64,000 nucleotides of DNA from Monocercomonoides exilis PA203. Lineage: Eukaryota > Protista > Preaxostyla. Shown piece after piece: positions 7,597-63,020 of this stretch. The notes beneath the pieces are model-generated. The model was not told the DNA's origin and did no database searches. It worked only from the letters and a program-made list of their open reading frames with translations. Position numbers and translations under genes: made by a program. Positions within the stretch are counted from its first letter, which is position 1, and every line of letters begins with the position of its first letter. Where the stretch lies: positions 434,001 through 498,000 of the forward strand of contig LSRY02000053.1 in the NCBI GenBank assembly GCA_001643675.2, read 5' to 3'.

Positions 7597-8377
7597 TCAG
7601 CAATAAACATAATAATCATTCACATCTTTTGATAAACCATACAAAAAATACCTCCAAAAAATTGTTTCATAACGCTTGGTGATTTCATCTTCATATCCTT
7701 CTTCCTCAAACCTTTCAAATATCTTTCTTTTAATCATCTTCCTTTCCGTCTTCGAAGGTTTTTCTTCACTTTCTTTGCTTGTTTTTCCTTTCAGTCTTTT
7801 CGAAACCAATCCAAGCAAACTTAGGCATTCCTCCGTTAGAGATCTGTTCAATGTTGATTGGGAAATTTCTTCCACAAACAAGTTAGCTGCTCCTTCCAGA
7901 AAATTGGTTTCCGATATGGCGTTGATTGTATACATTTTCTTTACACAATAAATACAATCATTACATAATTCTCTGTGCAAATCATTCTGATTGTTCCTTG
8001 CTGCTCTGAACAGACAGACAAGACAGCCAAGAAGATCAGAGCATTCGCCTAAGCCTTCCTGAACACCATCAAACAATTCCCGCAGTAGTTTACACCATCT
8101 CAATATTGTAATCATTTCTTCCTTTTCTTTTCTCTCTCCCTTTTTTTCATTTTTCTTCCAATCCACACATTTCATCAGCTCTTCCAATTCTTTTGCTGCT
8201 TCTCTCACAAAATGCAGTTCATTCGCAATTACATCTTCCAAGCTTTTGTCTCTATAAAATCTGTTCATCAAAAACTTCCAAGTCGATTGATATGCAAGAC
8301 GAGTCAAATTATGATGCTCCTGATGATATTTGATAATCTCTTTGATCTCATTCAAGTACAACTCTTTATCTATTTTC

Positions 8378-8427
<50 letters not shown>

Positions 8428-9077
8428 GTAATAGTAGTAGTAATAATAATAATAAAACACAAAAATAATCAAACCACATAATACTCAATATTGCTTAAAG
8501 CCAGCAATTCCATTTCCGCTTCTTTTTGTGATTCATTATCTTCTTTTCTGTTCGATGCAACTTTCAGAAGACAAGACACGCAAATCAACGATAATTCTGA
8601 TGAGAAATAGAAGCTCAAAGAAGAGTAGCATTTGCAAAGATCGTCCAAAAACTTTTCAATCTTTCCTTCTTTTTTCTTATCTTCATCAATTATCATTTCT
8701 TCAAATCTTCTGTTCAATGCAGATTCATCAAAGTGCAGATTCCATATTCTTTGCATTTCTTTCCAATATCCAACGCGCTTTAACAACAAAATTGCATTTT
8801 CCAAAGATATTTTCTTTTCTTCAATCATTTTGTCAATTTCATTGAACAGCTTTTTAGTGAAAGTCCACCCTATTTCTTCTTTATTCATTCCATCAATCAT
8901 TTCATTCATTTCAAGGATTTTCTGTCTTTGATCTTCTTCATCGCAATCCTCAAGCTCAGAAAACAATTCTTCAATAAAGAAAGAATGTAATCTCCAGTAA
9001 TTCAAATGTTACAACGAGGACAAACCATAAAATCTTTTAGTTACACTCCTTGTCTGCATTTTTGTAACACATTGCAT
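7597..9077 (-). CDS. Copy B of 3-exon helical protein family, apparently intact
   Basis: ATG at 9077 (MQCVTKMQTRSVTKRFY). GT-AG introns 8969..9025 and 8377..8474, the second containing a (TTA)n tract, join the exons in frame. Stop at 7597. Confidence 0.85.
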
Positions 9078-11053: not shown

Positions 11054-11426
11054 TGGAGGACACTTTCAATAACTGTAGATAGAGGCATTTTTTCATCTAT
11101 TATAGATAGTTGCATTCAGATAATTAATCTAACTATTCCCTCATTGAATATGAACTAAACAGCCATACGAAAATGAAACAACTTGCTTCCAAGAATAGAG
11201 AAAAAAACAATTTTTGTTTTCGGAGAAACTGGAGAATCTTTTTTCTCCGAGTTTCTTTGAAAATAATAATTAATTATTTCAAAATTTAATTGTGATCTGA
11301 GAATGAAAAAAACAATTCACATCGGTTCATATTCAATGAAGGAATAATTGTGTAAATTGTCAAAATGTAACTGTCAACTGTTGTTGAGAAAATGCAACTG
11401 TCCACAGTTATTGAAAGTGTCCACCA
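11054..11426. mobile_element. Degenerate inverted-repeat (MITE-like) element
   Basis: TGGAGGACACTTTCAATAACTGTAGATAG at 11054 pairs with CTGTCCACAGTTATTGAAAGTGTCCACCA ending at 11426. An inner pair is TTCCCTCATTGAATATGAAC / GTTCATATTCAATGAAGGAA. Arms are about 100 bp. Confidence 0.7.
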
Positions 11427-11454: not shown

Positions 11455-12221
11455 ACCATTTATTATTCAAATTTGGTAAACTTATTATTCAAAATTGTTA
11501 AACTAATTATTCAAAATTGGTAAACTAATTATTCAAAATTAATAAAATTCAGAATTTTTTATAAAAAAATTTTTTGATATAATGTGATCACTGGCTGATT
11601 GTCAGAAAGTGATTAAAATGTTTTGTTTTTTCATTATTCTTTAAAAGGATGAGAATTGAACCCCAATTTTTATTATTTGTGAATAAATTTGAAAATTTTT
11701 GATATTTCAGAAAAAAAACCATCATCCTTGTAATTGAATAATTTTCAAATGAATTCACCTCACATCGATAAATTATGTTAATTTCAATCAAGAAAAGTTA
11801 TTCGCATCAGTTTTTCAAGCAAAATACAAATATTTATTGGTACTGAATAAATCTGCAAATACACTTTAGAAAATCGTTAATTGTTTTTTATTGTTCATCT
11901 GAATAAATTTAAATTTCAATAACTTTACTTGATTGAATTTTACATTATTTATCGATGTGAGGTGAATTCATTTGAAAATTATTCAATTACAAGGATGATG
12001 GTTTTTTTTCTGAAATATCAAAAATTTTCAAATTTATTCACAAATAATAAAAATTGGGGTTCAATTCTCATCCTTTTAAAGAATAATGAAAAAACAAAAC
12101 ATTTTAATCACTTTCTGACAATCAGCCAGTGATCACATTATATCAAAAAATTTTTTTATAAAAAATTCTGAATTTTATTAATTTTGAATAATTAGTTTAC
12201 CAATTTTGAATAATAAATGGT
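11455..12221. mobile_element. Foldback/MITE element with ~300-345 bp near-identical inverted arms
   Basis: Arms 11455..~11802 and ~11918..12221; the mirror ORFs 11588..11791(-) and 11929..12132(+) are almost identical. Termini ACCATTTATTATTCAA...TTGAATAATAAATGGT. A 22-bp unit TTATTCAAAATTGGTAAACTAA occurs about 4 times in the left arm and 2 times in the right. Confidence 0.9.
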
Positions 12222-14921: not shown

Positions 14922-15391
14922 ACCAAAAATTATTCAAAATGAGAACTTTTGCGTTCAAAATGGAAATTTTGCAAACAAATTAATTAAAATTTCAAACGAA
15001 ATAATAATTTTTGCGTTCGAATTAATAATTGCTGAAAACATTACAAAAATTTATTCACACTCTCACGAAATTTTGTGAAAATCAGTTTTTCAATTTTGAA
15101 TCGGAAATAATTTTGTGTTGTCATTATTTTCTTGTACGTTAGAAAATTTTTTTATATTTTTAATTTTCTGACAAAAATTTTGATAATTTCATATAATTTT
15201 TATTCATATGAAAACAGAAAATATATTCATTTCGAATGGAAATATTTTCATTTCGTTTGAAATTTTTTCATTCTGAACGTAAAAATTTTAAATTTGAATG
15301 CAAATTTATTATTTTGAATGAAAAAACTATTAATTCGTTTACAAAATTATTAATTCGATTGCAAAAATTCTCATTTTGAATAATTTTTGGT
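14922..15391. mobile_element. Foldback/MITE element, older, with degenerate ~20-bp internal tandem units
   Basis: Terminal inverted repeat ACCAAAAATTATTCAAAATGAGAA(C/T)TTTTGC at 14922, reverse complement ending at 15391. Both arms continue with degenerate TTTTGCRTTCRAA.T units. Confidence 0.8.
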
Positions 15392-15510: not shown

Positions 15511-15767
15511 TTTGAAAAATTTATTCAAAAAATTTTCTTACATTTATGATCAAAACCAATAACATCAATTCATCTAATTTTTTAAAAATTGGTGTGAATG
15601 CTAAATTAGAGCGTATTTAAACAATGCACGCAACACAATAAATGATCAAGGGATTATCATTTTGTTTAATATTGAGCAGGAATTTACTAATGTTGTTCAA
15701 ACCAAATTACATAAATCTTGCGAAATTACACTAGCTTTTGTCATTTTTTAAAAAAGGAAAGCAATAA

Positions 15768-17037
15768 ATGTTTGCACATTCATTTTTCAGCTTATTTTAT
15801 TTTATTTTCACAAAACAGGCAAAATTCTCAATCACAAGAAGCCAAGCAAAGCTTTTCACAGGCTGGAGAGAATATGAAAGAAGGAATGCAGCACCTTGGA
15901 TCGGCAGCAAAAAGCCAATCAAAAGAGATGGCTCAAAACGCAAAGGAAGGAATGCAGCGTGGTGCTCAAGTCGTAGGAGACAAGATGCAAAACGTTGGAG
16001 CTGCGGTGAAAGAAAAAACAGTAGAAGTCGCACACAATGCTAAAGAAGGGATGCAACGCGGAGCTCACGTGATGGGAGATAAGATGCAATCAGTTGGAGA
16101 AAAAGTTAAAGAAAAAACAGCAGAAGTTGCCCATAATGCAAAGGAGGGAATACAACATGGAGCTCACGTGATGGGAGAAAAAATGCAAAATGCTGGAGTT
16201 GCAATGAAAGAAAAAACAGTCGAAGTAGCCCACAATGCAAAGGAGGGAATACAACATGGGGCTCATGTTATGAAAGAGAAAATGCAAAATGCTGGAGAAA
16301 TCATGAAAGAGAAAGGAAGTCAAGCGAAGGAAGTTGTTAGTTCAAAGGCAAACGATATGAAGGAAGGGATGATGGAGGGAGTTGAGAAGATGAAAGAAAA
16401 ATCAAATGACATGACCGAAAATACTGAAGAAGTTAGCGAAGAAATGAAAGATGATACTCAAAGTGGATTTGGAAAAATGAAAGAGAAAATGGGTGAAATA
16501 ACTGACAAAATTCGTACAAAGATTGATGAGATGTCAGGAAGTTTGCAAGATGGATGGGAAAGCTTGAAAAAGAAAATGACCACAAAGAGTAATAAAACTG
16601 ATGAGGATGAAGAAGAAATGAAAGATAGAGAGGACATCAAAGAAAGAATAATGGAAGAAGCTGGCATTCATCCAAATGACGGAGATGAAGTGAAAGAGAA
16701 AGTTATAGAAATGAAAGATCAATTGAAAGATGAGCTGAAAGAAGGAATTAACTCATTGAAAAAGAGAAGCGCACAAGCTCACAAAGCCGAGCAACAAGAA
16801 GAGCGTGAGGTTGAACGCGCAAGAGATAATGCTCGCAGGGATTCTGAGCAACTCGAAGAAGCTCTTCAAGAAGAAATTGAAAAAAGAAGGCAACACAGTC
16901 GTTCAAATTCCACAGTCGAATCTCAACAACACGAGGTGAGCCCGGATGATTCAGTCCTCCAACAGAAAGTTCATCATGCAAAAGAACAAGCACAAAACGA
17001 AGCAAAGCCAAGCGGATGGGAAGGAATTGGCCACTAA
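15768..17037 (+). CDS. Hydrophilic LEA group 3-like protein with 33-aa (3x11) tandem repeats
   Basis: About four copies of NAKEG(M/I)Q(R/H)GAHVMG(D/E)KMQNxGxxxKEKTxEVAH (99-bp period); the protein is K/E/A/M/Q-rich and lacks Cys. Proposed start AT(15768-15769) | GT-AG intron 15770..15818 | G(15819), giving MQNSQSQEAK. Stop TAA at 17037. Confidence 0.8.
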
Positions 17038-18988: not shown

Positions 18989-20057
18989 TACCATCGTTCG
19001 AAAACCCGGGAATTTTTCTAAAACCCGGACTTTTTCATAAAATTCATATTTTTCAACAAGTTTCAAAAATAAAATTATGATAATTCACATAATTATTCAT
19101 CGGTATATAACACATATAATCATGTACATATTTTTATTTAATGTGCTGTATTTATGAAGAAATAAATAATTTTTATTTTTGAAAATCTGACTTTTAATGA
19201 ATTTTTCTATTTCAACAAAACGATTCAGTTCATCTTTTATACGTAAAACTTATTTTTTCTTTGTTGCAAACTGTTCTGGTTATTTTTCATTTTCGGCAAT
19301 TTTCTCTTTCTAGCGGAATGAAAATCTGTCATTTTCAAAAAATCACAGCCAATGGGATTACTTAAAAAATATTTTTTGCAAAACACAAAAACATCCAAGT
19401 GAATTTAACACATGTTTAAATAAATATGATAGTTATATGAAATTTCTTTATTGATGAATTTTAAAATGATTCAGTAGATATTTCATAAATCAAGATTATT
19501 TTCACAAGTGATGATTTATTATGATCATTTTCATTGAATTTTCTACCAAATTGTGTTTTATGAAATATCTACTGAATCATTTTAAAATTCATCAATAAAG
19601 AAATTTCATATAACTATCATATTTATTTAAACATGTGTTAAATTCACTTGGATGTTTTTGTGTTTTGCAAAAAATATTTTTTAAGTAATCCCATTGGCTG
19701 TGATTTTTTGAAAATGGCAGATTTTCATTCCGCTAGAAAGAGAAAATTGCCGAAAATGAAAAATAACCAGAACAGTTTGCAACAAAGAAAAAATAAGTTT
19801 TACGTATAAAAGATGAACTGAATCGTTTTGTTGAAATAGAAAAATTCATTAAAAGTCAGATTTTCAAAAATAAAAATTATTTATTTCTTCATAAATACAG
19901 CACATTAAATAAAAATATGTACATGATTATATGTGTTATATACCGATGAATAATTATGTGAATTATCATAATTTTATTTTTGAAACTTGTTGAAAAATAT
20001 GAATTTTATGAAAAAGTCCGGGTTTTAGAAAAATTCCCGGGTTTTCGAACGATGGTA
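18989..20057. mobile_element. Near-perfect 1.07-kb palindromic foldback element
   Basis: 499-bp arms 18991..19489 and 19557..20055 with a 67-nt spacer; one mismatch seen by eye (ATGACAG vs ATGGCAG). Termini TACCATCG...CGATGGTA. Subterminal ~19-bp direct repeats AAAACCCGG...TTTTTC. Flanks fit either a TA or a TATT duplication. Confidence 0.92.
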
Positions 20058-27087: not shown

Positions 27088-29487
27088 TTATTTCAATGAG
27101 CATTCAATGAACTCTTCCAAATACCCTTTGCATTCAAACACTTGTAACCAAATGACAAGAATTTCTTCCACGGCTTCTGACACATGATCTGGATTATATT
27201 TTTCATTTAGCTTCAAATTAATTTTTTTTCGTAATTTCGGAATATCTTCCATAGCTTCCATTGCAATAGCAAAACGCGCAATGATCTTGTATTCATCATT
27301 GGGCTGCAATAAATCAGGCAAATCTTGTTCTTTTTGGTACATTTTTGATTCGCTCAAAGACTTTGAAGATTCTGCCATTGCTCGTCTGCTCTCAAATGCA
27401 CTGTGAGTGGAAGGTGTTGCAGATGATGATGGAGTTGTTGAAGAAGAAGCTTCATTGTCAAAATTTGTTTCTTCTGCCTTTTCTCTTTTCACTTCATTGA
27501 TATACTCCTTAGGAATAAACATTTGTGCAAAGCGATACAATTTCACAATTATTTCGGCATATTTCCCCCACATCTTGTCGCATTCTTCGCAAAATTCCAA
27601 GCAATCACTCAACTTTGCTTTCTGTAAACTCCAGTATTCTTTCATAATTTTCAACTTTCCACATATATTCTCCTTCTCGTTTCTTTCTTTCTTCTTTTTG
27701 CGTTTTTCACTATCTATTTCAACATTTCCACTCATTCTGCTAATCAATTCTTCGTAACGCGAAATAACAGTCCTCGTTTTTTCGCTTTTGTCCCTTTCAA
27801 ACTTTTTCATGATGATCCTGTATTCCTTAATTTTCTGAGCATTTGATGGAATATCTCTCATTGGTGCAGATAGCTCTATTATTCCTTTGCACTCACTCGT
27901 CTTATTCGCAAACCTCATCGGCACACCCAATCCTGCTAATGCGTATGCAATATTCCCTATATATCTCCATGTTCTTGGTGCATGAAATGTTCCTTGTATT
28001 ACTCCATCTTTGATGCACAGTTTGTGCTTCTCATCGTTGTATGTGTATTCATTTCCAGGAATAAACTTGGCAGTGGCATTCGGAACATCAATTTGCTGTT
28101 TAATTACAACCGTATTTGACGAGTAGCCTTCATTTTTGAAGAATTCAATAGTGTCGAATCTCACAGGATCATCTCTGTCAAGTTCGCTGATCATCTCTTG
28201 GTATTTGCACATTTCGTCCTCATACACTTGAGCAGCGGCACGGCAACGTTCGATTTCGATCTTTAATGATTCGATAGGCTTATAAGTCATTCCGTCCATC
28301 GCTTCATCAATTTTTTGCACATCTCTGTTAATGCTATTGTATAATTTGCTTGTTTCACTTGCAAGCATCTCACATGTATTTGCAACGTCTTTCAGAAAAT
28401 TTGGAATTCTTCGTCTTCCTCTCATTGCTGATACCAGCCAATAATACTTATTTGCCATTGTCGTGATTGAATCAATAAACGAGTTATAATAGTCCGAGTT
28501 AAATTCAAGATTCACATCGCAAGGATCCCTGTAATTATTCAAATCCTCAATCTTTTCAATAATTCGTTCAATGGAGCAAGCTAATGTTGGATCATAATAA
28601 AGCAGTCTGCCTTCATCAATTGCCTTGTCCCACAGATAGATGATTTGCATTTCTTTCAAGCCAATTCTAACTTCTTCTGCTTCCTTTCCCGTCGCTCCTT
28701 TTTCTTTGCGCAAAAGTGTTTCAATAATTTGTTCAAGTGTCATGCTTGTTGACACCTCAGAAAATCGTTTGACAATTTTTATTATTGTGGCATTTTTGAG
28801 TTTTTCAATATTCTCAATTAACTTACCTTGAGCTTCTTTTATTATTCCTTCTGCATCTGCTCTTCCATCATACGAACCGGATTCCTCTTTCGCTTGCAAA
28901 CGATCTTTCATTTTAATTATCCTTTTTTCTTGGCATTTGTTTGCGAGGAACAAAATTGGTATTTCCTTGTTTCTGCATTTCTTGTTCAGTATTTCCATAT
29001 CAGCATGTGCCTTTGTCAAATTGCTGTAATTTTCAAATTCTGTTATATAAACAATCATCACTTTTTTCGCGTATTTGTGATAGAACTGCAAGATCAACGA
29101 ACTGAGCACATCTTTATCAACATCTAATTCTTCCCCTAAGAATCCACGTGTGTCGAGCAAGGTTATTTCATCATTCAGTTTGTATGCCTCTGGTAAAACA
29201 GTTTCTGATGTTATTCCCTTTCCCATTGCTGCTGTTTTCTCCAAACTTGTTTTAACAACAAGTTTTCCATCATCATCTTCTTCCATTTCCATTCCTCTTA
29301 GCCTGTTTATTAAGGTGCTTTTTCCAACCTGACTTCTTCCAAAGATAAGGACAAGATTTTTGAATTTCTCAGATTTGTTGCATCCCTTGAAAAATTCATT
29401 CAGTATTTGCAACAGTTCCTTTTGCGAAAACAAAACTTTTTCATCTTGCGTTTTATCGTCTTTTGATCGTTCAATGCGAGGAATCAT
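27088..29487 (-). CDS. Intronless ~800-aa TRAFAC-class P-loop GTPase with long helical/coiled-coil C-terminus
   Basis: G1 IFGRSQVGKST, G2 GITSET, G3 LLDTRG, G4 FLANKC. The first in-frame ATG is at 29487 (the ORF track starts at TTG 29523). Uninterrupted ORF. Confidence 0.85.
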   Translation of the reverse strand: MIPRIERSKDDKTQDEKVLFSQKELLQILNEFFKGCNKSEKFKNLVLIFGRSQVGKSTLINRLRGMEMEEDDDGKLVVKTSLEKTAAMGKGITSETVLPEAYKLNDEITLLDTRGFLGEELDVDKDVLSSLILQFYHKYAKKVMIVYITEFENYSNLTKAHADMEILNKKCRNKEIPILFLANKCQEKRIIKMKDRLQAKEESGSYDGRADAEGIIKEAQGKLIENIEKLKNATIIKIVKRFSEVSTSMTLEQIIETLLRKEKGATGKEAEEVRIGLKEMQIIYLWDKAIDEGRLLYYDPTLACSIERIIEKIEDLNNYRDPCDVNLEFNSDYYNSFIDSITTMANKYYWLVSAMRGRRRIPNFLKDVANTCEMLASETSKLYNSINRDVQKIDEAMDGMTYKPIESLKIEIERCRAAAQVYEDEMCKYQEMISELDRDDPVRFDTIEFFKNEGYSSNTVVIKQQIDVPNATAKFIPGNEYTYNDEKHKLCIKDGVIQGTFHAPRTWRYIGNIAYALAGLGVPMRFANKTSECKGIIELSAPMRDIPSNAQKIKEYRIIMKKFERDKSEKTRTVISRYEELISRMSGNVEIDSEKRKKKKERNEKENICGKLKIMKEYWSLQKAKLSDCLEFCEECDKMWGKYAEIIVKLYRFAQMFIPKEYINEVKREKAEETNFDNEASSSTTPSSSATPSTHSAFESRRAMAESSKSLSESKMYQKEQDLPDLLQPNDEYKIIARFAIAMEAMEDIPKLRKKINLKLNEKYNPDHVSEAVEEILVIWLQVFECKGYLEEFIECSLK

Positions 29488-29753
29488 TCTTGTTGAAAAA
29501 TTTTTTGGGCACCCATTATACAAATGTTAAGAAATTATTTTTTTTCTCAAGAGGAATTTGAGGTTTCAATGTGCAAAATGCAATTATCGATCTGTCATGC
29601 GCATGATCATTTTCTGAATAAATAAATCAGCATTATTTTCTTAAAATAAAAATGATATTTTTTTCTCTTTTTCTTTTCCATATTTTTTACATAAAAGGCA
29701 AAAATTGAATATGGTTTCTCTTTAGTTGATATGCTGCCATAAATGAAATGAGA

Positions 29754-31974: not shown

Positions 31975-33447
31975 ATGGAAATATGCAATAAAGACAAATC
32001 CAATGATTATACGCAGGAGCTGTCATGCACAGATAAGTTTAATAGTTTGTGAATTTCAATTGTCGTTTAAAAGCATTTTAATTGATGCATTAACATAATT
32101 TTGGAAGAATTGTTTTTTGAACTGGATCGTTGTTCAGAAAACGAGCAGAAACTGATAATCGAAGAAATGAACGAACTCTTATTCGAAATGGATTTTTCAA
32201 ATTTGCGGTACATTTTTATTACTGAGTTGTTCGACAAAATGAACAAAATGAACAAAATGATTGAAGAAAAGAAACTTTCAATGGAAAATGCAATTTTGTT
32301 ATTGAAGCATGTTGGATATTGCAAAGTGATGAAAAATATATGGATTATGTACACAAAAGAATCTTTGTTGAAAAGAAGAATTGATAAGATGATTGCTGAC
32401 GAAAATGAGAAAAAAGAAGAAAAGAACGAAAATCTTCTTGTTGGACTTTGTGAATGCTATGTAGCTCTTAGTTATGACTTCCCTTCAGAATTACTTTCAA
32501 TATTTGTGCCTTGTCTTCTGAAAGCTTCATCGAGCAGAGAGGAAAACAAGGAAGCTCAAAAAGAAGTGGAAATGGCTTTGCTGACTTTAAACTATATTGA
32601 TTATTTCATGGCTTGATAACTTTTTGTGTTTTTATTTTTAAAAAAATTGATTTTTAATGATTTTCTTATTTCAAATTAGTTTATCGAACGAAAACTGTAT
32701 TTGAATGAAATCAAAGAAATCATAGAACATCATCAGGAACATCACAATCTGACTCGTCTTGCATATCAATCAGCTTGGCAGTTTTTGATGAACAGGTTGC
32801 CAAATAACAGTTTGGAAGAAGTTATTGTGAACGAGCTGCATTTTGCAAGGGATACAAGAAGAGAATTGGAAAGGCTGGTGAAGCAAGTGGATTTGAAGAG
32901 AAGAGAAGGGAAAACGAATGGAAAGGAAATGAAAGAGATGGCAACTTTAATGAGGTGGCTCGGATCATTGAACTCTTTCTTCAGAAAATGCAAATTGTGG
33001 AATGAAGAATTTGTTGGGATTATCAGATACGTTGTTCAGATATTTCGAGTATCAAAGGATAATTACAAAGAAATAAGCGGAATTTGCATATCTCCGCTTA
33101 TTTCAGCAGCCGATAACGGAGCAGTAAAAGTTGATTACTTGCTGAAAGGTGGAGCCATTGATGCACTTTTGGAGGAGATACAACAACCAACACTGAATGA
33201 CAAAATTGCGTTTTATGGATTGCAATTCTTAATGAGAGTTTCAAGACCATTGAAAGAAAAGAAGAAAGAAGAAATGGAAGAAGAGGAAAGAAAGGCAACG
33301 AAAAGGAAGGTTTTTGAAAAGCTGGAAGAAGAAGGATACGAAGATGCCATCATTTGCTTTCATAAAATATTCGATTTTTTAAACCTCAAATTTCGTTATG
33401 ACTTCAAATTATCTTTGAATATTTCTGATTATTTTGTGTATATCTGA
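31975..33447 (+). CDS. Copy C of 3-exon helical protein family (second intron GC-AG)
   Basis: ATG at 31975. Intron 32045..32107 is GT-AG. Intron 32611..32679 begins GCTTGA at the position of the GT donor in the paralogs and joins in frame. Stop at 33447. Confidence 0.8.
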
Positions 33448-36104
33448 GGAAATAAGACGCATTTCATTTAATGACTCAAAAACTGTATTTTTCATTTTGT
33501 GTCATTTCGCAAAATAACAAAAAAATTAATTGAAGAATTTTTTTGATTGTTTTTATTCCCTCTTTCAATAAAAAAGAAAAATCAAAAAAATCCATTATTT
33601 TTTATCACCATCAAAAATCTTCATCGAATGAATATCAGTCTTCCATCTTCTTCAAACAGATTCATTTTTTCGTATAAATTCAATTGTTCAGTTATTTCCT
33701 CTTGAAGCCTCTGGATAACTCCAATTTTTCTCTTTCTCATCGCAGTCTCAATGAATTCGAGAAGTGAGAGGCGAAATGCGATGTGAAAATTCTTGAGAAG
33801 AAAACAAGAGTATCAATATAGAAATGATTGTTGAAGAATGCAGATGTCAACTTCATGAGTTCCATAAATAACAGCAAACATGGCTGAAAAAGAAGCTGAT
33901 CCAATGCTCCAATTCAGGATGTGAATGACAGAACAAGTCAATCAGAATTTATTGCTCTTCACATTCTTCTCATTTTTGTTTAGTTTTTCATATCTCTTTG
34001 TTCTTTTTCTTTCTTTTCAATTTGTCTTCCTTCGCTTTTCTCTTCATTCCTTTTATCTCTTCTTCTTGAATAAGGATACTCGTTTCATTCATTTCACTCA
34101 AAAATATCAATCTTCACAATCTCAATCAAGTTTTCCTTCTTTCTCTTCCTTTTTCTTTTTTCATTCAGTTTTCATCTGCTTTTTCTTATTGACGGAGAAA
34201 GAGAAGATATCTCATTCACATTCTTTTCTAACAAAATCATCCAAAAGTTCTGCTCCAATTATATATCCTCTTCAGCTGCTTTGTTGCCACATAAATAAAT
34301 ATTTCTTCATTCATCAATCATTTTTCACTGTTATTCCGTTTCCTTGGCAGATCTCTCTCAATCTCTGTTCAAAATTGTTCTTTTCTTCTCCATTTTTCTT
34401 CAATTCATGAAATGTTCCAAAAATTCATTCTGCCAAATCCGCTTTTTTCTCAAGCCCAATACAAAAGCAATGCATTCATGAAAAAATAAAACCTTTTATT
34501 TTTGGTTTTTGAGAATGAATTGAAAAGACGAAAGAAATGAATCCATAGCATTGAGGCTAACGGTTGATGTATTCAATGGAAAAGTCTTCCTTTGTTTTTT
34601 CCCGTCCGTTCTCCAATACTTCTGTTTTTATAAACATTCAAAATGCAGAAGAAGAAGAAGAAGAAGAAGATGATGATGATGAGAAGAGAAGAAATGAAGA
34701 AGAAGATGAAGAAGAAGCAAATGCTGAATGATAAGAGTTCAACGCAATGACTGCTTTCGCAAACAAAGTTCTTGCAGCATCAGAGCTGAAGAAATAACGA
34801 AAGAAGAAAGAGAATTGAAATGAAAAATGAAAGAAAATGAGTTTGATGAGACTATTTGAGGGCGAATAAGCAGTAAAGGCCAACAAGATTCATCTGAAGG
34901 AAATGAAGAAACATTGGATGGATTCGAATTTCATAATAATTTGAAACAAGAGAAAGCAGATCCATTCCATGTTGCAACATGAGAATTTGATGGCTGTCCA
35001 AACAACATATTCTCAAATACGAAGAAGGTGTTCTTTCCATCTGCCAAATTGAAAAAATTTTGTTAATGAAGAAATTGAAGGAGAAGGAGAAAAAACAAAG
35101 TGATCCACATTGATGGAACTAGAAATGGATTGTCCCCGGGAATGACGCTCAACAGAAAAAATGCTGTTGGTTGTAATGGAAAAAAGATTAAAAAATAATA
35201 AAATAATAATAATTAGTTTTGCATTGATAATGAAAATTCCCTTAAAAGTTCACACCTGCTCTCCCTATTGCAAATGCAGAGGATTGTCCAATCACAAATG
35301 CTGCCAGACTCCTTTTCCATTGTTTCCTTGTGCTCCTTTCTCCATCATCCTTTTTTTCAATAAATATCCTGCTTTCAATGTTTTCATCTATTTTTCTCAT
35401 CAAAAAAATATTTCTGCATTTTTCTTTCCAAATGTTATCCAATTGTTGTCAATCCTTTTCGCTCCCATCCAAATGCTTTAAAATCGATTTTGTTTTCATC
35501 CCCTCTCCCGATTGAATACAAAAAATTTGTAATTCCCATCTTCTTATTGTCTCTCGGCATAGCTCTCTTCTTATGATCTCCTCAGAAAAGCAAAGGAATG
35601 ACCATTTATATATTTTATCAGATTCTTGGGCTCTGAGAAGACCACAGAGGGAAGCATCTTTAAAATGAACCAGAACCATTCAAAAAATACAAACATCAAT
35701 ATACTTTCTTTTATCTATTCAGAAATTGCTGTATTCCATCCAAATATGTTTTTCATAAAAATCATCTCGCCCAATTCCATCATCAATTTCCCGTCTTCTC
35801 TGTTTCGTTCCACCACACAAAATAAAATCGCATATCCTACAGAAAATATTCACTCACCAATTTCTCATTCAGCCTGTTGTAATGCCAGTCCAAATTATCT
35901 CTTTCGATCATTGTATCCATTACAAATAAAGAAAAATTGAAAAAGCGTTGTTTCTTTTCATAATCCTCAGCCAAAATGTCAACAAAAGAAAAAACAGTAA
36001 AAGCACATATTTTAATGACTCTTTTGAGCTTTTTTTTTCATCTATTTCTTCTGTCCAATGATATTCGAATTCAATGTGAACGCCAAAACTGCGTTGTATT
36101 CTGA

Positions 36105-37537
36105 ATGCAATGTGTTACAAAAATGCAGACAACGAGTGTTACTGAAAGATTTAATGGTTTGTCTTTGTTGTTGCATTTGAATTACTGGAGATTACATTTT
36201 TTGTTTATTTTTTTTAAGAATTGTTTTCTGAACTGGAGCGTTGCAATAAAAGTGAACAGAGAAAGAAAATCGGAGAAGCGAATGAAATAGCTGATAGAAT
36301 GAATGATGATGAATTTTGTTCTATTTTTGAAGTTGAAATATTCAACAAAATATCCAAAATGATTGAAGAAAAGAAAATGTCAATGGAGAATGCAATTTTG
36401 CTGCTGAAGCATATTGGATATTGCAAGGTGATGAAATGTGCATGGATTTTTGGCTTTGAAAAATCTTCGTTGAATGATAGATTTGAGAAGATGATTATTG
36501 AAGAAAGTGAGAATAAAGATAAAAAGAACGAAAAGATTTTGATTGATCTTTGCGAATGCAATCTTTTGCTAAATTACTGGTTCGATTCGAAATTGCTTTC
36601 AATTTGTGTGCCCTGTCTTCTGAATTTTGCATCGAAGAAAGAAGAAATCGAGGAAATTCAAAAGGAAGTGGAAATGGATTTGCTGGCTTTGAGTTGCATT
36701 GGCGAATATTTTGTCTGAACATTCCTGTTTTTATTTTTTATATAATTGATTTTTAATGATTTTCTTATTTCAAATTAGTTTATCGAACGAAAACTGTATC
36801 TGAACGAGCTTATGGAAGTCATCAGATATCACCAAGAGCACCAAAACCTCACTCAACTTGCGTATCAGTCTGCTTGGGATTTTTTGATAAACAGATTTTG
36901 CCAAGATAGAGGCTCAGAAAAAGCTGTGGCAAATGAACTGTGTCTAGCGAGAGAAGCAACAAAAGAATTGGAAAGGCTGGTGAAGCAAGTGGATTTGAAG
37001 AGAAGAGAAGGGAAAACGAATGGAAAGGAAATGAAAGAGATGGCAACTTTAATGAGGTGGCTCGGATCATTGAACTCTTTCTTCAGAAAATGCAAATTGT
37101 GGAATGAAGAATTTGTTGGACTTTTCAGATGCATTTCGACGCTTCTAAGAATTTCAAGGGATAATTACAGAAACATTCAAATGCAATGCTTTTATATTTT
37201 TGAATCATTGGCCGAAAACAGAACATTGCATATCGATGCATTTCTGAATGGAGGGGTTATTGATGCTGCTTTGGAGGAGGCAAGCAAATCAAATGTCAAT
37301 TTCACACAAATGAAAGGCTGCATGATGATTGCCAAGGATCTTAGCGAAAGATTGAAGAACAAGAAGGAAAACGGGAAAAAAATGACAAAATTAAGAAGTT
37401 TGAAAAGAAAATTGTTTGATAAGTTTGAAGAAGAAGGATTCGAAGATTTAATGGAAGGTTTTTATGTTCTGTTAGGCGACTGGCGCAAACGAGTTTTTTA
37501 CACATTTGAATTGGCTGAATGCTTTGTTTATTTGTGA
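36105..37537 (+). CDS. Copy D of 3-exon helical protein family, apparently intact
   Basis: ATG at 36105; GT-AG introns 36157..36218 and 36713..36778 join in frame; stop at 37537. Confidence 0.87.
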
Positions 37538-38112
37538 ATCAAATGTTCGCTTCAATTTTGTTCATGTTTTTGATATTCATCATAAATGAAAAGTGAATGA
37601 AGAAGAATAAATGTGGTTTTTTTCATTTCGGAAATTTTGACTTTATATTTCAGAATAGCCTGGATTTTTGTGATTCGAAAGAATTTTGATGATTTTTGCA
37701 GCATTTCCTAATTTTGAAGCTTTTCAACAAATTCAATTTGAAATAAACCCAGTTTCGCAAAGGGGAGTCAAGGTAGATGGTCACTCGCTTTCAACTCCAA
37801 TGAAGAATTGATTGAAATCATGAAAATGAATGGACTTTTCATTTGTTTTGAAAAATATTTGTTTTTGATGGTTTTTAAAGTCTGCTTTTTGATTGGAAAT
37901 ATTATAAAAATGATAAAAAATGAGTCAGGTCTAATATGAAGCATCAAAAAGATTTTCAGAAAAAGGTTCAAAAGCTGTTGCAAAAGCATTAAATATTTGA
38001 TTTTTCATTCTGAAATTTGTTTTGCAGTTTTATGCAGTGCAAATAAACCAAACAAGAAAAAGAATATAATAATGATGTGGGAAAAGCTAAGAGCACAAAA
38101 AGCACAACTTCA

Positions 38113-38147
<35 letters not shown>

Positions 38148-38444
38148 TTAACTTTGAATAATTATGCAGCAATTGTGATAAATGTTTGACTTTTCATAAT
38201 TATCCAATGACACATCACATAAAATGTGATTGAAGGCTGAATGAAACATACAAAGTCAAAGAAATAGAAGAGGATCTTTACAAAAACACTGAAGGAATAT
38301 TGACTTTATTTTCAAATTATCGCCAATCAACAAATACCCTTCCATTTCATGTTGTAAAACCAAAATCACTCATATTTTCCTTTCACCTGATACATAAAAT
38401 TTCATAAAAATCAAAATACATGACTCAACTGTGTATCAATCACA

Positions 38445-49070
<10,626 letters not shown>

Positions 49071-50399
49071 CGATTTATTATTTATTAAACAAAATCTATT
49101 TGAAATGATCCGTTGCCATTTTATGTAAATTACAGTTTTCAAAAAATTGTTTCATTTCATAAAATTTTCCATGAATTGGAATATAAAAACTGATTGAATA
49201 TGTAATTCATTTTAAAGTTTAAAACAAATTTTATTTTATTTGTGAATAAATAAAAATTATTTCTCAAATGAAAACATACAGAGAAGTCTTTGAACAAACT
49301 GTAAGATATAACTTCAGCCAATCAACGAGATAAAAAATGACAAATTGGAGCAGTTTTTTTGAACAACTGATAATAAACATTCAAACTTGTTTCATCTGTT
49401 TCCTGGGTGAAAAAAACTTGTTCACTGAAAACTTTGAAAAAGAAATATTTCCATTTATCGAACTTAAAAATCTTGGTCTTAATTCTCAAATTATTGAAAA
49501 AGCATGAATTATTATTTTCAAGATCGAAATTTCTTTTTTCCAATCAAAAGTGTCGGTTGACATTTTTTATTACCCTTTTTAAAATAAAAAAATTAATTAT
49601 TGAAGTGAATGAACTCCAATAACTGATAATTTTTCGTTAACTCATCTCAGACATTGGCTTTCTAAACAATAATTCTGAAATCAACATTCAATCAGATAAA
49701 AAATAAAAATAAAAAAAAAAAGAAAGTGCACAATATACGACGGTTTCCAGTTTTTCGTGAAGATGATCTTTCAAGTATTATAAACTGTTGGAAAGTGTAC
49801 AATATACGACTGTGAACCAAAAAAAAATGTTGAAGTTGTAATGAATGCATGTCATGCACATATGGAGCAAAATATTTCACTTCAGGCATTTTCATTGAAA
49901 AATTATGCTCTTTTCATTGACTTTTAGAGATCAAAAAAACATTAAAAAATGGATTTATTTTATTATATTCGTGAAATGTTACATTACTTTATGTTTTGAT
50001 TTCAACGATACCTGTCTAAGGACTTGAAAATCAAATTTATTTCATTATCTGAGAAAGTGAAATAAAGTTTTGAGTGAAGTAATTTTAACATGCTTCAAAC
50101 ATAAAAAGCAAGAAAGTCCGTATCTCCCCTCATATGTTTAAATTTTTTTGGAAAAGTTCCTCTTGTCCAAATTTCAAATATCATAAAAATTTCAAATAAT
50201 GATAAAAATTATGTTCACACTCAAGAAATTTCACTAAAATGGAAGCAATATCTTGACAATGTTATTATTTCCATTTAAGTGAAGTTTCACGATTTGGAAC
50301 AGAAAATTTATTGAAATATGACATTTTTATTTTATTTGAAAATTAAACAAAAGGAACTTTTCAAAAAAAAAATTTGACACATGAATGACTGAACAAAAA

Positions 50400-50923
50400 T
50401 GAAAAGAATGTGTAGAGCAATAAATTCTGATTGACTTGTTCTATTATTCACATTCTGAATTGGAGCATTGGATTGGCTTCTATTCCACCATTCTTGCTGT
50501 TGCGCATGGAACTCATAAAGTTGACATCTGCATCCTTCAACAAACATTTCTTCATAAATGCCTTTGCATTCTTCTCAAGAGTTTTCACATCGCATTTCGC
50601 CTCTCACTTCTCGAATTCATTGAGACTGCGATGAAAAAGAGAAAAATTAGAGTTATGCAGAGGCTTCAAGGGGAAATAACTGAACAAAAAACTTTTCATG
50701 AAAAAATAAATCTCTTTGAATAAGATGGAAGACTGACATTCATTCGATGAAGATTTTTGATGGTGATAAAAAAATAATGGATTTTTTGATTTTTCTTTTT
50801 TATTGAAAGAGGAAATAAAAACAGCAATAAAAATTCTTCAATTATTTTTTTTGTTATTTTGCGAAATGACACAAAATGAAAAAGACAGTTTTTGATTCAC
50901 AAAATGAAATGCGTCTTATTTCC
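50400..50923 (-). repeat. Inverted duplicate of the 3' flank of copy C (~33448..33975)
   Basis: For example, TTTTATCACCATCAAAAATCTTCATCGAATGAAT and CAGTCTCAATGAATTCGAGAAGTGAGAGGCGAAATGCGATGTGAAAA occur at 33.6-33.8 kb (+) and 50.6-50.8 kb (-). Confidence 0.9.
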
Positions 50924-52358
50924 TCATATATACACAAAATAATCAGAAAGATTCAAAGATAATTTGTGATAATTTCTTTTGCTAAGAAAATCTATAATTT
51001 CATGAATACTTGTGATTACATCTTCGTATCCTTCTTCTTCCAGCTTTTCAAACACTTTCCTTTTCGTTTCCTTTCTTTCCTCTTCTTCCATTTCTTCTTT
51101 CTTCTTTTCTTTCAATCGCCCTGAAATCTGCATTAAAAATAATTTACACTCATATGTAGTGCCATTCTGTGTTGGTTGTTGTATCTCCTCCAAAAGTGCA
51201 TCAACGGCTCCACTTTTCAGAAAGTTATCAACTTTAACTGCTCCGTTTTCGGCTGCTGAAATAAGCGGAGATATGCAAATTCCGCTTATTTCTTTGTAAT
51301 TATCCTTTGATGCTCGAAATATCTGAACAACGTATCTGATAATCCCAACAAATTCTTCATTCCACAATTTGCATTTTCTGAAGAAAGAGTTCAATGATCC
51401 GAGCCACCTCATTAAAGTTGCCATCTCTTTCATTTCCTTTCCATTCGTTTTCCCTTCTCTTCTCTTCAAATCCACTTGCTTCACCAGCCTTTCCAATTCT
51501 CTTCTTGTATCCCTTGCAAAATGCAGCTCATCCGCAAAAACTTCTTCCAGGCTTTTGTCGTTGAAAAATTCTGTTATTAAAAACTTCCAAGCAGACTCAA
51601 ACGCAAGTTGAGTGAGGTTTTGGTGCTCTTGATGATATCTGATGACTTCCATAAGCTTGTTCAGATACAGTTTTCGTTCGATAAACTAATTTGAAATAAG
51701 AAAATCATTAAAAATCAATTTTATAAAAAATAAAAACAGGAATGTTCAGACAAAATATTCGCCAATGCAACTCAAAGTCAGAAAAGCCATTTCCACTTCT
51801 TTTTGCATTTCCTCGCTTTCTTCTTTCTTCAATGCAAAATTCAGAAGACAGGGCACACAAATTGAAAGCAATTTCGAATCGAACTGGTAATTTAGCAAAA
51901 GATTGCATTCACAAAGTCCAACAAGAAGCTTTTCATTTTGACTCTCTTTTTCCATCTCATTTTCATCAATAATCATCTTTTCAACTTGTTTATACTATTT
52001 AGAGCGATAAAATCCACTGTTCCATATATCTTTCGATGCTATGAAATATCAAACATATTTCAGCAGAATGTGAACATTGCTCAAAAATATTTTCTTTTCT
52101 TCAATCACTTCGTTTATTTCATTGAACATTTCTTTTGATATAATCGAATCAAATTCTTTTTCCCCTATCTCTTCCATCATTTCATTCATTTCAACGATTT
52201 TCACTTTCTGTTCATCCTCATTGCAATGCTCAATTTTGGAAAACAATTCTTAAAAAAGAAGAAATAGAATCATGAAGAATGCAAAGCGCAACAATTGCGC
52301 ACCATTGAAGCAAGCAGTGATAATCATACTCTGTTTTTTTCCCTCCAGTGCAATGCAT
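50924..52358 (-). pseudogene. Copy E of 3-exon helical protein family; mosaic pseudogene
   Basis: Same exon structure (introns 52249..52302 and ~51.69-51.75 kb). In-frame TGA at 52049 and a TAG near 51997. The homologous ATG at 52358 is out of frame across an A-run. Confidence 0.85.
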
Positions 52359-53519
52359 TCAAAAAACAACAGCATTTTTATCATTCACATTGAATTCGCA
52401 TTTGTCAATTAAAGAAAATTGTGGCGAAATAAAATCTTGAAACTGTCATTGAATATATCTGTGATCGCTCTTCTTCTAGACATTGAAATTCTGCACAGTT
52501 GGCAAAATTTTTTCGAAAAGTTCCTCGACTTTAATTCTGTCCCACAAAAGATCACATTTGATCAAAAAATGTTGATCATTCCGTTCCCTTTATTGTTTTA
52601 TTTATATTACATATTGTTATTTTCTGAGTTTATTATTGAAAAATTAGATACAAGTTTGTTGATATCATATGAACTGTAAACCTTCGTTTCATATTTGAAA
52701 TAAAAAACAATCATTTTGTTGTTATTTGGAACATTCAAATGTTTTAGTTAATATTTGCATTTTTCATTACATTCGTTTGAATACACATCTTGCTTTTTTG
52801 GATAATTTCACTTTTTGAACATCCTTGGTTGTTGGAAATCTTATAGAAAAAATTTGCTTGATTTGGAATTTTTTTTTTTGAAATTCATGAACAAAAAAGA
52901 TTTGACATTTCACATCTCAATACATGTGAATGATGTTTATTCATTTGTTTGCAAAGGACAGTTTTTGATATGAAAATTATAATATATAAAATTATATATA
53001 ACCAGCAAGTTAATAATTTTAAAACCTTGGAATTGTAAAAACAAGAAAAGAACACATTTCCCACTCGTTGAATCAAATCATGAATTGCATTCATATTCAC
53101 TTTCGTTTCCATATTTATCTGACTTTTCCCAATATTTTTCTTCTTGCTTAAACGTGATGTTTGTAGAAAGCATTCTCTATCTTTTTCCAACACTCGAAAA
53201 TTGTGAGATTTTCTTTTCATGTTAATTTCACTGGTATGAAACACGAAGTTGTTACAGCTCCACCAATAAATATGCCTGAAAATGCGATTAAATTGACCCA
53301 AAATCTTCTTTTAGCAAACGAAAATCAGCATTTATCTCTTTGCTCTCCTTTAACTTCATTTTCATCTTTTTCAGAACATGGAGTGAGGAAGTGAGCATTC
53401 AGATCTTTTCACGAAAGATGCGCATGCATTCATGCCAACAACTATCTGTTTTATCCTTCGTTGATGCTGACTGTGATAACGCTGTTAGTGTTGCGATCTC
53501 CGCTGTTAAGGCTTGCGAT

Positions 53520-59500: not shown

Positions 59501-60442
59501 ATTTTTCAAGCTCAAAAAATGAAAGCTTTTATAAATAATTAAACTTAAAGAAAAAACAAATTGCAAACCATCAATTTTTGATAATAATTTTGTTCAATCC
59601 AACTTGTACAAGCCGTATTTGCTTCCATGAAAGTTGATATTCAATCTGAGTTTAAAAAAATTCTGATTTAGTTAAAACTTAAGTGATTATCAGGATATTT
59701 GTTAATTCTCAAAAAGAATCGAAATATACCGTGAATAATTCATAATGCAGCAATTGCTTGATTGTTCAAGCAAACGTTACTCTTTTTTATTGCGAAACAA
59801 GTTTTTTAATTTTGATCAATTAATTTAATATATAATTTTTGAATTCAAAATATTTTTTCTCATTTAGAAGTTTGCATCGAACTTACAACAATTGTGGAGA
59901 ACGTAACTTTTATTAATAAGAATAATGGTGAAGGAATGATAAATAATTAACTTCCATGGGTCAAATTTTTGATCTGATGTCACTTTTCAAAAAAATTTAG
60001 CCAGTTATTATGGAAAAGAATCACTTGATCTTTTTCTGTTTGTTGCATTGGATTCTATGATCTGAAAATATTATTGGGAAAAGCTTTTCTGAATGAAAAA
60101 TCAGAAACCAATAAGTGAATCTATTCTGTTGAATCATTTATAATATCTCCAACGGTGACATCATGCAAAGATAAAGATGTATTGATTTTTTTAATTTTTG
60201 TGAAATAAATTTTGAAATTGGATGACCAAGTGAAACACAACAATTTTATTAACAACACATTAAAGTGCAAAGCACCTTTATTCTTAAGAACAATCGTGAT
60301 TAACGACACCTCTCTTTTATGGGAGTGAGAGCGCCTTATTAAGGGCTCTGTCGTTCACAAAATTTGAAAAATGTCAACATTGTTGGAAGGACCTGCGTAA
60401 AGACTGAGCGGGATATTCCCGCAAAGCGGAACAACAGGCGAT

Positions 60443-61015
60443 ATGGGCGCACCTATTCCCATTTCCAATCCAACTTCCGCAGCTTCCAGTTTGGCATTTG
60501 CTTCATCTTCTGTGTCTCAACTGTCCGAGGACATTGCGATGACGCTAGACTCAGCTCCCACACAGCCCTTGGATAAAGCCTGCAATATACTATTCGGAGA
60601 TCAAACCCATTATTCAGTGTTCAACTTTCCAATTAAAGCCAATGATATTGATCAGTCCACAGCAAAATATGAGTTACTCTCAGCGAACCCGTTTATTCCA
60701 GCTAGAACCCACGCTCACTCCCGATCAAGAAGCTGGTTTTTCGATGCACTTGACGAGGGAACCTGGAAAGTGGAGGCCAGGTTGCTTCCAGCGCTGAAGG
60801 CAATTGTGTTGGCAACTCAGAATGTGAAGCAGGAGGATAAACCGTATTTAAGCGACGCGCTAACCTTCTTAATTACAGCGCTTCAAGATACTAGACAATT
60901 GGGGATAATCGCTAAATTTGGTTATACTTCTGCTGTGTTATTACAGGAAGAAAAAGAAGACCCATTACTCAACAGGGTACAACTTGAAAGGATTGCACCA
61001 TTGATGCAAAAGTAA
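60443..61015 (+). CDS. Putative DIRS ORF1 (gag-like), probably prematurely stopped
   Basis: 190-aa ORF directly upstream of the RT; the frame stays open after the TAA and overlaps the pol frame. Assignment is positional only. Confidence 0.55.
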   Translation: MGAPIPISNPTSAASSLAFASSSVSQLSEDIAMTLDSAPTQPLDKACNILFGDQTHYSVFNFPIKANDIDQSTAKYELLSANPFIPARTHAHSRSRSWFFDALDEGTWKVEARLLPALKAIVLATQNVKQEDKPYLSDALTFLITALQDTRQLGIIAKFGYTSAVLLQEEKEDPLLNRVQLERIAPLMQK

Positions 61016-61040
61016 CGAGAAACCTTAACACACTCAACAT

Positions 61041-63020
61041 ATGCAGCTAGCCTGCAGAGCGCGCGTTCCTCGAGAGAATTTTACTCCAGAAGACGTTTCA
61101 TCCCTCCAAAGACTCGATTTTTCTGAGAAAGAAGGAGGCCGCACTCAGGCCTTCGCAGTTGAGATGGAGAAAATTGGAGCGGGAGAAGTGATTGAGGAGG
61201 GTATTCGACCGATTTGGAAGGGAAAGGGTGCGAGAGAAAAACTAGAGAAGGAGAATGGACGATGCGGAGGCTTCATCGGAGGGAAGAAAGAGGAGCAAGC
61301 TTGTGCGGAGTGGATTCAAGAGGGGTTGAGGACAGAAGTGTTGACCAAGCTGACCGCGGACCAAGTTGGTTGCCTGAACAACATTTTCTTTATCCCGAAG
61401 AAGAACGGCAAATTCAGACAAATCCTAGACTGCAGACCGCTGAACTCCGCGCTGAAGGATGTTCACTTCAAAATGGACGATCATCGCACGGTGGAGAAAC
61501 TGCTGCAAAAGGAAGACTGGGCGACTTCTTTGGACCTTTCTCAAGCGAATTTCCTCATACAGGTTCACAGAGAGTTCACACATTTCCTGGCTTTCAAGTT
61601 CAGAGGAGATTTCTTCGGTTTCAGGGAAATGCTGTTTGGTTACAAGGACGCCCCCAGGGTCTTTCCCAAGGTTATGCGCAAAGCAATGATGCAGGAAAGG
61701 AAACGGTGGAGGGTGAGGTGGATAACTCATTTGGACGATATGCTTTTCTTCATCAGGATTGAAATCATTTGCGGGAATGGAGGAAGGAGATTGTGGAATG
61801 GCTAGGGAAGCTAGGCTTCTAGGTAAATATGGAGAAAAGCGAGCTACAACCAAAAAGACTCTTCAATTACCTTTGATGGAGATGCGACAGCGAACAGATG
61901 ACAGTGAGACTGGAGGATCAACGACGCAGTGAGCTGAGGCAACAATGTGGGAAATGGATGAAGTGGGTGAAGCGCAGCAGGACTGTGATAGTGCGGGGTT
62001 TTGCATCCTTCAAAGGGCTACTCAGCGCTAAGCGCTTCGTGTTCAGAGAGGAAAAGCTTGTTTATGAACAGATAGAATGCGGTTCTCACCAAAGGCGTTA
62101 GAGAATCTGGTTGGAACGGGGAGGTGCACCTCAACGGCAGTCTGAAGAGGCAACTGGAGCTATGGTTACAGAGACTGAAAACGAGGTTCAACAGGAAGCT
62201 GATGGACTTTGCCAGCCCAGAAGCTGTTCTTACATCGGACACCTCTCCTTTTGCAGTGAAAGCAACCTTGAATATTGCGGGGAACATCCAACATTTCCAC
62301 AAATTTCTCAGCCCAACATTCAGGGAACAAGCATCGAATTTCAGAGAGCTTTTGGCTGTTCTCCTTGCTTTCAACAATTTTTCTTCCAGCCTGGAGAGCA
62401 ACAAAATCCACAACCTGCTCTTCCGTTCGGACAATACATCAGTTGTTTTCAATATCAACAGGTGGGGAGCAGGACCGTTCTTTGTTTCTCTGCTGAGGAA
62501 GATTCGATAAGCATGACAATAGATGGATCTCCCAGTGAATGCAATTCACATTCCAGGAGAAAGGAACATCGCGGTAGAAGCACTGTCCCAGACAGTGGTA
62601 GAAGGAGATTACGAGATAACCGCTCGAGAACAAAAAGAAGCCGAACAAGCGTTTGAAGCGGTTCACATAGTCGACGCATTCGCAAACAGGAAAAACAAAA
62701 GATGTGTGACCTGGTATGGTCCGGGAAGCCCTTGGTGCAAAGACGGTCTCGCTGCGGATTGGGGAAGAGACGTCGTTCTGCTTCACCCTCCGATTCCGCT
62801 TATCGTCCCTTGTCTGAAGAAAGCGAGAGCGGAGAAAACGAGAGCAATTATTCTTCTTCCAGCCTGGAAGAATCAAGTGTGGAGTCAATTGTTTGAAGAG
62901 ATGGAGACTCATCGAGTTGTGTGGAAGGACGCAAAAAAGGTCCTTTTACCAGGAGAAGAGCTTAGAAGGACTGGAGCATCTCTGCCACCGTGTAGATACA
63001 TGGCGGTGAGGCTAAACTAG
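61041..63020 (+). pseudogene. DIRS pol: reverse transcriptase - RNase H - N6-adenine DNA methyltransferase-like domain
   Basis: RT: FFIPKKNGKFRQILDCRPLN, FKMD, SLDLSQA, FGYKDAPRVF, HLDD, LGF*VNMEKS, YL*W. RNase H: TSDTS, NFRELLAV, RSDNTSVV, HIPGERN. MT: VDAFAN...DGLAADW...LHPPIPLI...ILLPAW. Several frameshifts and stops. Confidence 0.9.

Follow-up and report, generated by a model that had tools for sequence, protein, structure and literature searches.

The family copies in the window

The window analysed here is a stretch of 64,000 nucleotides (nt) from contig LSRY02000053.1 of Monocercomonoides exilis PA203, a gut flagellate without a mitochondrion. It is eukaryotic DNA and carries five copies, designated A to E, of a gene family of the two-intron type. 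The copies are mosaics that have exact patches of DNA in common, and they belong to a large undescribed armadillo-like family in which ectopic conversion is real and family-wide and the protein surface is locally hypervariable. The pattern may reflect a selected use of that surface or a background process.

Copies C and D are intact and lie on the + strand. Copy C (31975–33447; P0040) has exons at 31975–32044, 32108–32610 and 32680–33447 and encodes 446 amino acids, and copy D (36105–37537; P0001) has exons at 36105–36156, 36219–36712 and 36779–37537 and encodes 434 amino acids. The spliced models of C and D are identical to the deposited M. exilis proteins MONOS_18210 and MONOS_18211, respectively. 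Intron 2 of C (32611–32679) is of the GC-AG type with a GC donor. Copy B (7597–9077, − strand) yields an intact model of 441 amino acids with exons at 9077–9026, 8968–8475 and 8376–7597; no identical protein was found among the 134 family proteins compared. Its second intron (8377–8474) contains an expansion of the trinucleotide ATT.

Copies A (4727–6034, + strand) and E (50924–52327, − strand) are probable pseudogenes. Exon 2 carries two in-frame stops in both (4727–5226 in A; 52248–51752 in E), while exon 3 is open (5279–6034 and 51685–50924, respectively); exon 1 was not identified in A and is uncertain in E (52327–52303). An alternative genetic code was rejected as an explanation of these stops, which comprise TAA, TAG and TGA at positions where the consensus residues are unrelated. 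Comparison of the window with itself returned no family fragments beyond the five copies, no common terminal repeats and no transposase adjoining the copies.

Exact tracts and template switches

Copies C, D and E match exactly over 156/156 nt: 32862–33017 in C and 36964–37119 in D, both on the + strand, equal the reverse complement of 51345–51500 in E. The first-pass annotation had reported this tract as identical, and it is so at every position. Its 52 codons correspond to the second and third helices of repeat 6 in the predicted protein and include six hypervariable sites. Between C and E the exact run is longer than the three-way tract, extending to 217 nt (32833–33049 in C; 51313–51529, − strand, in E, with the tract at 51500–51345). 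The gene bodies of C and D have an identity of 0.69 over 1316 aligned nt; in 10,000 permutations no identical run between them exceeded 41 nt, versus the 156 nt observed. The abrupt divergence of C and D around the tract, also noted previously, is confirmed by the counts of matching positions, which are 63/97 nt on the left flank and 222/418 nt on the right. Another tract, of 56 nt, is identical in the same three copies (32645–32700, + strand, in C; 36744–36799 in D; 51720–51665 in E) and spans the 3' part of intron 2 (35 nt) and the start of exon 3 (21 nt).

Copy E had been described as switching between D-like and C-like templates, and that description is supported. Across intron 2 (51910–51601, − strand) it agrees with D 36554–36863 at 298/310 nt and with C at only 232/310 nt. 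It then resembles C over 51312–50924 (331/389 nt) and in the 3' flank (50381–50923, − strand), which is 89% alike to the C flank at 33448–33991 (453/510 nt). The C-terminus departs from the description, being nearer to P0127 (MONOS_18202), encoded on the same contig and exact over 26 residues, than to C. The patch LLVGLCEC, formerly assigned to C, is present, but the match is of 24 exact nt and the motif recurs in 5/137 aligned paralogs, which leaves the assignment weak. For the informative sites of C, D and E, the MaxChi statistic is 131, a value that 1000 permutations did not approach (maximum 18). The proposed likeness of the 5' region of D to copy B is upheld: the upstream region, exon 1 and intron 1 of D (35991–36235, + strand) are 86% alike to B (207/240 nt). 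Elsewhere on the window's contig, D has its N-terminus in common with P0002, and C has residues 73–130 in common with P0003.

Inside the 156-nt tract, all 47 of 47 degenerate codons are identical between C and D, whereas outside it 106/153 degenerate codons for the same residue are identical; at the outside rate, the chance of 47/47 is 0.69^47, or ~3e-8. Purifying selection at the protein level is ruled out as the cause of the tracts by this silent-site identity and by that of the intron. Common intron DNA also points to a genomic template and rules out mRNA-templated copying of the intron-2 tracts. The exact patches between paralogs are thus very probably the outcome of ectopic gene conversion.

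In intron 2, the identity of C with D and E is confined to the 3' part, and P0003, a relative of C, follows a different course; C is therefore likely the recipient of the 56-nt tract. Because C and E are alike on both flanks of the 156-nt tract, the likely recipient of that tract is D. As judged from the sequences, the donor of both could be the broken copy E or an intact neighbour. The earlier idea of pseudogene donors is therefore unproven: E would fit as donor of both exact tracts, and the intact copies C and D fit equally.

Run-derived contigs

According to the available text of PMC8767320, the assembly went through polishing with Nanopolish and ten Pilon rounds; given this short-read polishing, an artefact is the main risk for the tract observation. 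Contigs built from individual sequencing runs bear on this point; the DNA runs, four in number, are dated 2016 and 2022 and come from one sample, which may be the source of the window. In contigs of runs X1 and X2, D-specific DNA continues up to 36993, exactly 30 nt into the tract, which is where an assembly graph built on 31-letter words would break on reaching a repeat. Contigs of run X4 (2016) contain the left junction of E, the tract itself and the right junction of the C/E type. An RNA contig from a second study comprises the whole tract together with the left flank of D, and another the end of the tract with the right flank of D. Assembly polishing does not explain the tract junctions, and the suspicion that the mosaics are assembly chimeras fails on their presence in these contigs.

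Copies of D type and E type and a C-related copy are all represented among the bulk RNA contigs, which contain no per-cell information; one of the D-type contigs is spliced at intron 2. The RNA contig at 32989–33202 has nine differences from C, five of which give a motif of the P0002/P0003 type; it is possibly the transcript of a further mosaic copy. The 5' half of E (51859–52392) has a contig depth of 186–195 in run X2, where single-copy pieces have 79–97, hinting at an identical twin elsewhere, although run X4 is too shallow to confirm this.

Size and mosaicism of the family

A profile search that scored 7988 candidates yielded at least 404 clusters at 90% identity. At 50% identity there were 329, of which 283 had E < 1e-30; some genes are counted more than once, through older models. 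At least 120 of the 90%-identity clusters are from M. exilis, which accounts for all among the matches listed, and 10/10 of the weaker 50%-identity representatives checked are also from this species. Judged from the matches listed, outside which lie the 179 weakest clusters, the family is likely restricted to the M. exilis lineage. A search for DNA of relatives gave 590 pattern matches in metagenome contigs and 422 in prokaryote genomes, none of which was confirmed. The family thus has several hundred members, which are without annotation and named only 'uncharacterized'; 118 of its proteins are spread over at least 42 contigs, told apart by their lengths, and the median pairwise identity is 51%. 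One longer form has a nucleotidase- or phosphatase-like domain and another has two family stretches (P0213 / P0285 and P0029); these may be gene-model fusions.

Mosaicism across the family was analysed on proteins. For 118 full-length sequences of the 137 aligned, exact tracts were compared with conservation-stratified column permutations, with the threshold set at the 95th percentile of the maximum in 100 permutations. The threshold was exceeded by 39/6903 pairs, which are not independent events and which involve 53/118 proteins, in agreement with the earlier proposal of frequent short-tract ectopic exchange within a large family. The tracts have a median length of 34 residues and a maximum of 298, the longest arising from a few partial recent duplicates. 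Mosaics also occur among older gene models of different origin, such as P0004/P0021.

Tract pairs are ~35-fold enriched on the same contig (16/189, versus 14/5916 on different contigs; nine more involve unlabelled proteins), and none of 2000 shuffles of the contig labels reached 16 same-contig pairs. The bias persists without the window's contig (11/161 versus 13/5092) and inside the identity band of 50–55% (8/58 versus 16/3465). Trees from odd and even columns have 16/32 and 17/36 supported splits in common, whereas those from the N- and C-terminal halves have only 3/37 and 5/35; the segment trees are incongruent, and a single congruent tree for all gene segments, the outcome named in the first-pass annotation as contradicting mosaicism, is not obtained. 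The claim that switch points fall at conserved motifs did not survive. Conservation just inside the tract ends is 0.505, versus 0.507–0.524 for planted random tracts, and the observed value is reached in 55–81% of planted-tract simulations.

Predicted structure

The model of C, built with 140 sequences, has a predicted local distance difference test score (pLDDT) of 90 and a predicted template modelling score of 0.87, and forms an all-helical solenoid over the whole chain. The model of D (24 sequences, pLDDT 82) is also an all-helical solenoid, and in both the helices form triads spaced ~44 residues apart. The best fold matches were to designed armadillo proteins, other armadillo proteins and HEAT importins (Z 17–18 with a root-mean-square deviation of 5–9 Å and 300–360 aligned residues). 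The top match is armadillo, tied with the HEAT importins, and no single natural protein stands out. The nearest Atlas clusters are armadillo/HEAT proteins, and Foldseek with the better model returned no match at E up to 0.001. From these models the family protein is predicted to be a soluble armadillo-repeat solenoid.

A hydropathy survey of 181 full-length proteins, made without a dedicated predictor, identified a hydrophobic N-terminal stretch in 2 and a 19-residue window above 1.8 in 15 (the peaks of C and D are 1.27 and 1.22), consistent with the previous statement that the protein has neither signal peptide nor membrane helix. A Pfam scan of 24 members detected no NACHT or NB-ARC family in any of the 24 and no F-box or BTB domain. 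Near the end of the chain lies a nearly invariant acidic motif (D positions 399–405), in which five of seven positions are conserved at 96–99%, and the C-terminus ends in a conserved aromatic stretch. From their conservation, both are candidate docking sites.

Hypervariable positions

Across 129 paralogs encoded on other contigs, entropy is above 3 bits at 38 positions. In the numbering of D, they include loops at 91–99, 136–141, 179–183 and 220–226 and sets with a helical period at 274–286, 317–325 and 358–372. With exposed helix faces defined by the hydrophobic moment alone, 14/34 exposed positions on the third helices of repeats 5–8 exceed 3 bits, versus 0/46 on the second helices and 0/29 on third helices 1–4. 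A set of 82 further sequences shows the same contrast (3.05 versus 2.20 bits, p 4e-6). In armadillo proteins the binding groove is lined by third helices, a point for which a literature search gave no match. The suggestion of an intracellular variable recognition family, offered previously as a guess, gains from the predicted armadillo fold and the hypervariable helix face. The ratio of nonsynonymous to synonymous rates (dN/dS, omega) was set aside as uninformative through saturation, and the value of 3.0 for third helices is unreliable.

Mechanism and interpretation

The available text of PMC6759080 reports that M. exilis is monoploid and lacks non-homologous end joining, and that it has homologous recombination and most mismatch-repair components; the term 'gene conversion' is absent from the text searched. 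In a monoploid cell without end joining, a double-strand break would be repaired by homologous recombination on a nearby paralog, and the repair would overwrite ~50–300 nt from a genomic DNA template. Neither a dedicated recombinase nor an expression site would be needed. The tracts are about the size of a repeat (median 34 residues versus ~44), so that sets of variable residues would be swapped between scaffolds. The 156-nt tract, for example, would have moved one variable helix from a C/E-type gene into D.

We favour, with moderate confidence, the view that the family is a repertoire of variable binders. Docking on common cellular machinery would fall to the conserved N-terminal repeats and the conserved acidic C-terminal motif, and binding of diverse peptides or proteins, either foreign proteins or degradation substrates, to the variable groove. 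The fuller description, a conversion-patched family of several hundred predicted armadillo solenoids acting as such a repertoire, appears to us reasonably probable in the same measure. A more specific proposal, in which a library of hundreds of armadillo binders with a conversion-reshuffled groove serves as an intracellular repertoire for non-self recognition or substrate targeting, is tentative.

Several results weigh against a selected repertoire. The data do not demonstrate positive selection, synonymous sites have reached saturation (dS ~1–3), and omega is 1.2–1.3 at hypervariable, 0.74 at intermediate and 0.17–0.21 at conserved sites. Isolated substitutions within near-identical segments are 4.2-fold more frequent at hypervariable sites (9/135 versus 12/756), an excess that is no more than relaxed constraint predicts and is compatible with neutrality, and their amino-acid make-up is close to the neutral expectation. 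The grouping of repeats 5–8 is post hoc, chosen after the entropies had been seen, and the comparison of all third with all second helices gives a p of only 0.023 (0.035 in the replicate). Helix numbering and groove assignment derive from secondary-structure triads and general armadillo anatomy rather than from coordinates. There is no Pfam Arm match, no Pfam family above its curated cut-off and no sequence match in the PDB (0 at E up to 10). Two of the five copies in the window, A and E, are broken; no single contig among those listed runs across both flanks of the tract in D, the phase of which rests on the assembly; and the rate of conversion may be a genome-wide background, as the mosaic test covered this family alone.

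Much of this evidence suits an ordinary birth-and-death family of one function or partly redundant functions, in which break repair among many neighbours yields conversion as a by-product and the variable face is free of constraint. Passive conversion would produce the proximity bias and the random placement of tract ends (compare the available text of PMC3966223), omega near 1, the 4.2-fold ratio and the near-neutral composition at variable sites agree with this account, and the codon differences in the recent segments of E are 19 nonsynonymous and 5 synonymous, as in a neutral pseudogene. This account has more difficulty with the contrast between the exposed faces of the second helices, which are conserved, and four consecutive long helices, each with variation saturating one face; relaxed constraint would be more likely on the outer surface. 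Hundreds of full-length frames also persist at saturated dS with a scaffold omega of 0.17, and we regard the account as unlikely, though a serious contender. A dedicated system like those of VSG and msp2, in which an expressed locus receives segments from a silent or broken archive, with breakpoints set by motifs, is very improbable. The broken copy E does carry both exact tracts and could donate them to C and D, and the doubled depth of its 5' half hints at a twin. However, tract ends lack motif enrichment, both inferred recipients are intact neighbours, exchange appears to run both ways between intact neighbours in a family with intact genes on at least 42 contigs, the RNA contigs represent more than one type of copy, and hydropathy gives no surface-targeting signal. 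The resemblance drawn earlier to VSG/msp2 logic extends to segmental-conversion mosaics, and an archive-to-expression-site arrangement is not seen.

Two further explanations concern the patches themselves. Homogenisation of paralogs during the ten short-read polishing rounds could be entertained given that history and given that no run contig among those listed covers a whole gene. It is contradicted by run-built contigs that join the tract to left flanks of the D and E types and to right flanks of the D and C/E types, by the origin of these junctions in DNA runs of 2016 and 2022 and RNA runs of a second study, and by the mosaicism of older gene models of another source; it is largely refuted and can be given almost no weight. 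Unequal crossing-over or chimeric duplication, as opposed to non-reciprocal conversion, would account for a copy that is D-like and then C-like through 500 nt of flank, as E is, since one crossover plus a duplication could suffice. The internal tracts (156 nt in D and 56 nt in C), divergent on both sides, need two close switches, and E is inverted relative to C and D, which makes crossing-over improbable.

Relation to known systems

The closest parallel is with the WD40, TPR and ANK repeats of fungal NLRs (Podospora; PMC4986451, available text), which are likewise intracellular scaffolds with exchange between members and variable sites on one binding surface. The M. exilis family differs in having no nucleotide-binding or effector domain, in repeats that are not alike within a gene, in exchange between equivalent positions of paralogs, in its armadillo-like scaffold and in lacking a demonstration of positive selection. 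Trypanosome VSG and Anaplasma msp2, as portrayed in the portion of PMC3467770 consulted, similarly form short-tract conversion mosaics within large families with pseudogenes; the M. exilis proteins, however, judged by hydropathy, are not surface antigens, a single expression site is not seen, and intact intron-bearing genes on many contigs exchange with their neighbours. By analogy, the family appears to work more like the variable repeat domains of fungal NLRs than like VSG, and it is a member of neither group. Interlocus conversion in Caenorhabditis also leaves short identical tracts that are commoner between near neighbours, with moderate divergence tolerated if the loci are linked (PMC3966223), but in M. 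exilis it involves 53/118 sampled members at ~50% protein and ~70% DNA identity.

With armadillo proteins (beta-catenin, importin-alpha, designed binders) the family has the predicted solenoid of three-helix repeats in common, and it differs from them in its lack of a sequence-level match, its hundreds of members and its variable face. Natural armadillo proteins are usually few, with a conserved groove. The F-box and MATH-BTB substrate adaptors of nematodes are large birth-death families with a conserved docking part and a variable binding part. The M. exilis family is similar in size and in its variable part and proposed docking part; unlike those adaptors, it has no detected F-box or BTB domain and no shown link to a ligase.

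Among the matches listed for Monocercomonoides with armadillo or gene conversion there was no literature on this family, which the supplement of PMC6759080 may include, and 'armadillo' is absent from the searched text of PMC10703272. The largest family named for the genome in the accessible part of PMC6759080 is that of the tyrosine kinases, with 332 members; the armadillo-like family appears to be as large or larger. The text seen of PMC8767320 raises the possibility that unclassified repeats of the genome are expanded protein families. Should the variable face be a selected groove, the family would constitute an immune-like repertoire, built on a scaffold whose known use of this kind is chiefly in engineered binders, and rules of armadillo specificity could be drawn from it as a natural source. 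If it is merely relaxed, the result is well-supported yet ordinary gene conversion in an undescribed large family. A link that leads from monoploidy and the loss of end joining to paralog shuffling is testable.

Other features of the window

Between copies D and E lies a very large low-complexity gene (38445–47574, − strand), the main frame of which has no Pfam match; armadillo-like helical motifs can be seen in it by eye. An uninterrupted frame of 812 codons (27088–29526, − strand) separates copies B and C, and its product begins with an N-terminal P-loop GTPase match (PF01926, E 1.5e-7) followed by a long helical tail. At 15715–17037 (+ strand) is a protein with 33-residue repeats (99-nt period) that by eye resembles late-embryogenesis-abundant proteins. 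Perfect long inverted repeats occur at 11506–12214 (arms of 268 nt) and 18989–20057 (arms of 340 plus 160 nt), with weaker ones at 11054–11426 and 14922–15391; from their arrangement they are putative foldback elements or elements resembling miniature inverted-repeat transposable elements. A retroelement occupies 60401–62656, with a reverse transcriptase frame (PF00078) at 61029–61805 and adjoining overlapping frames.

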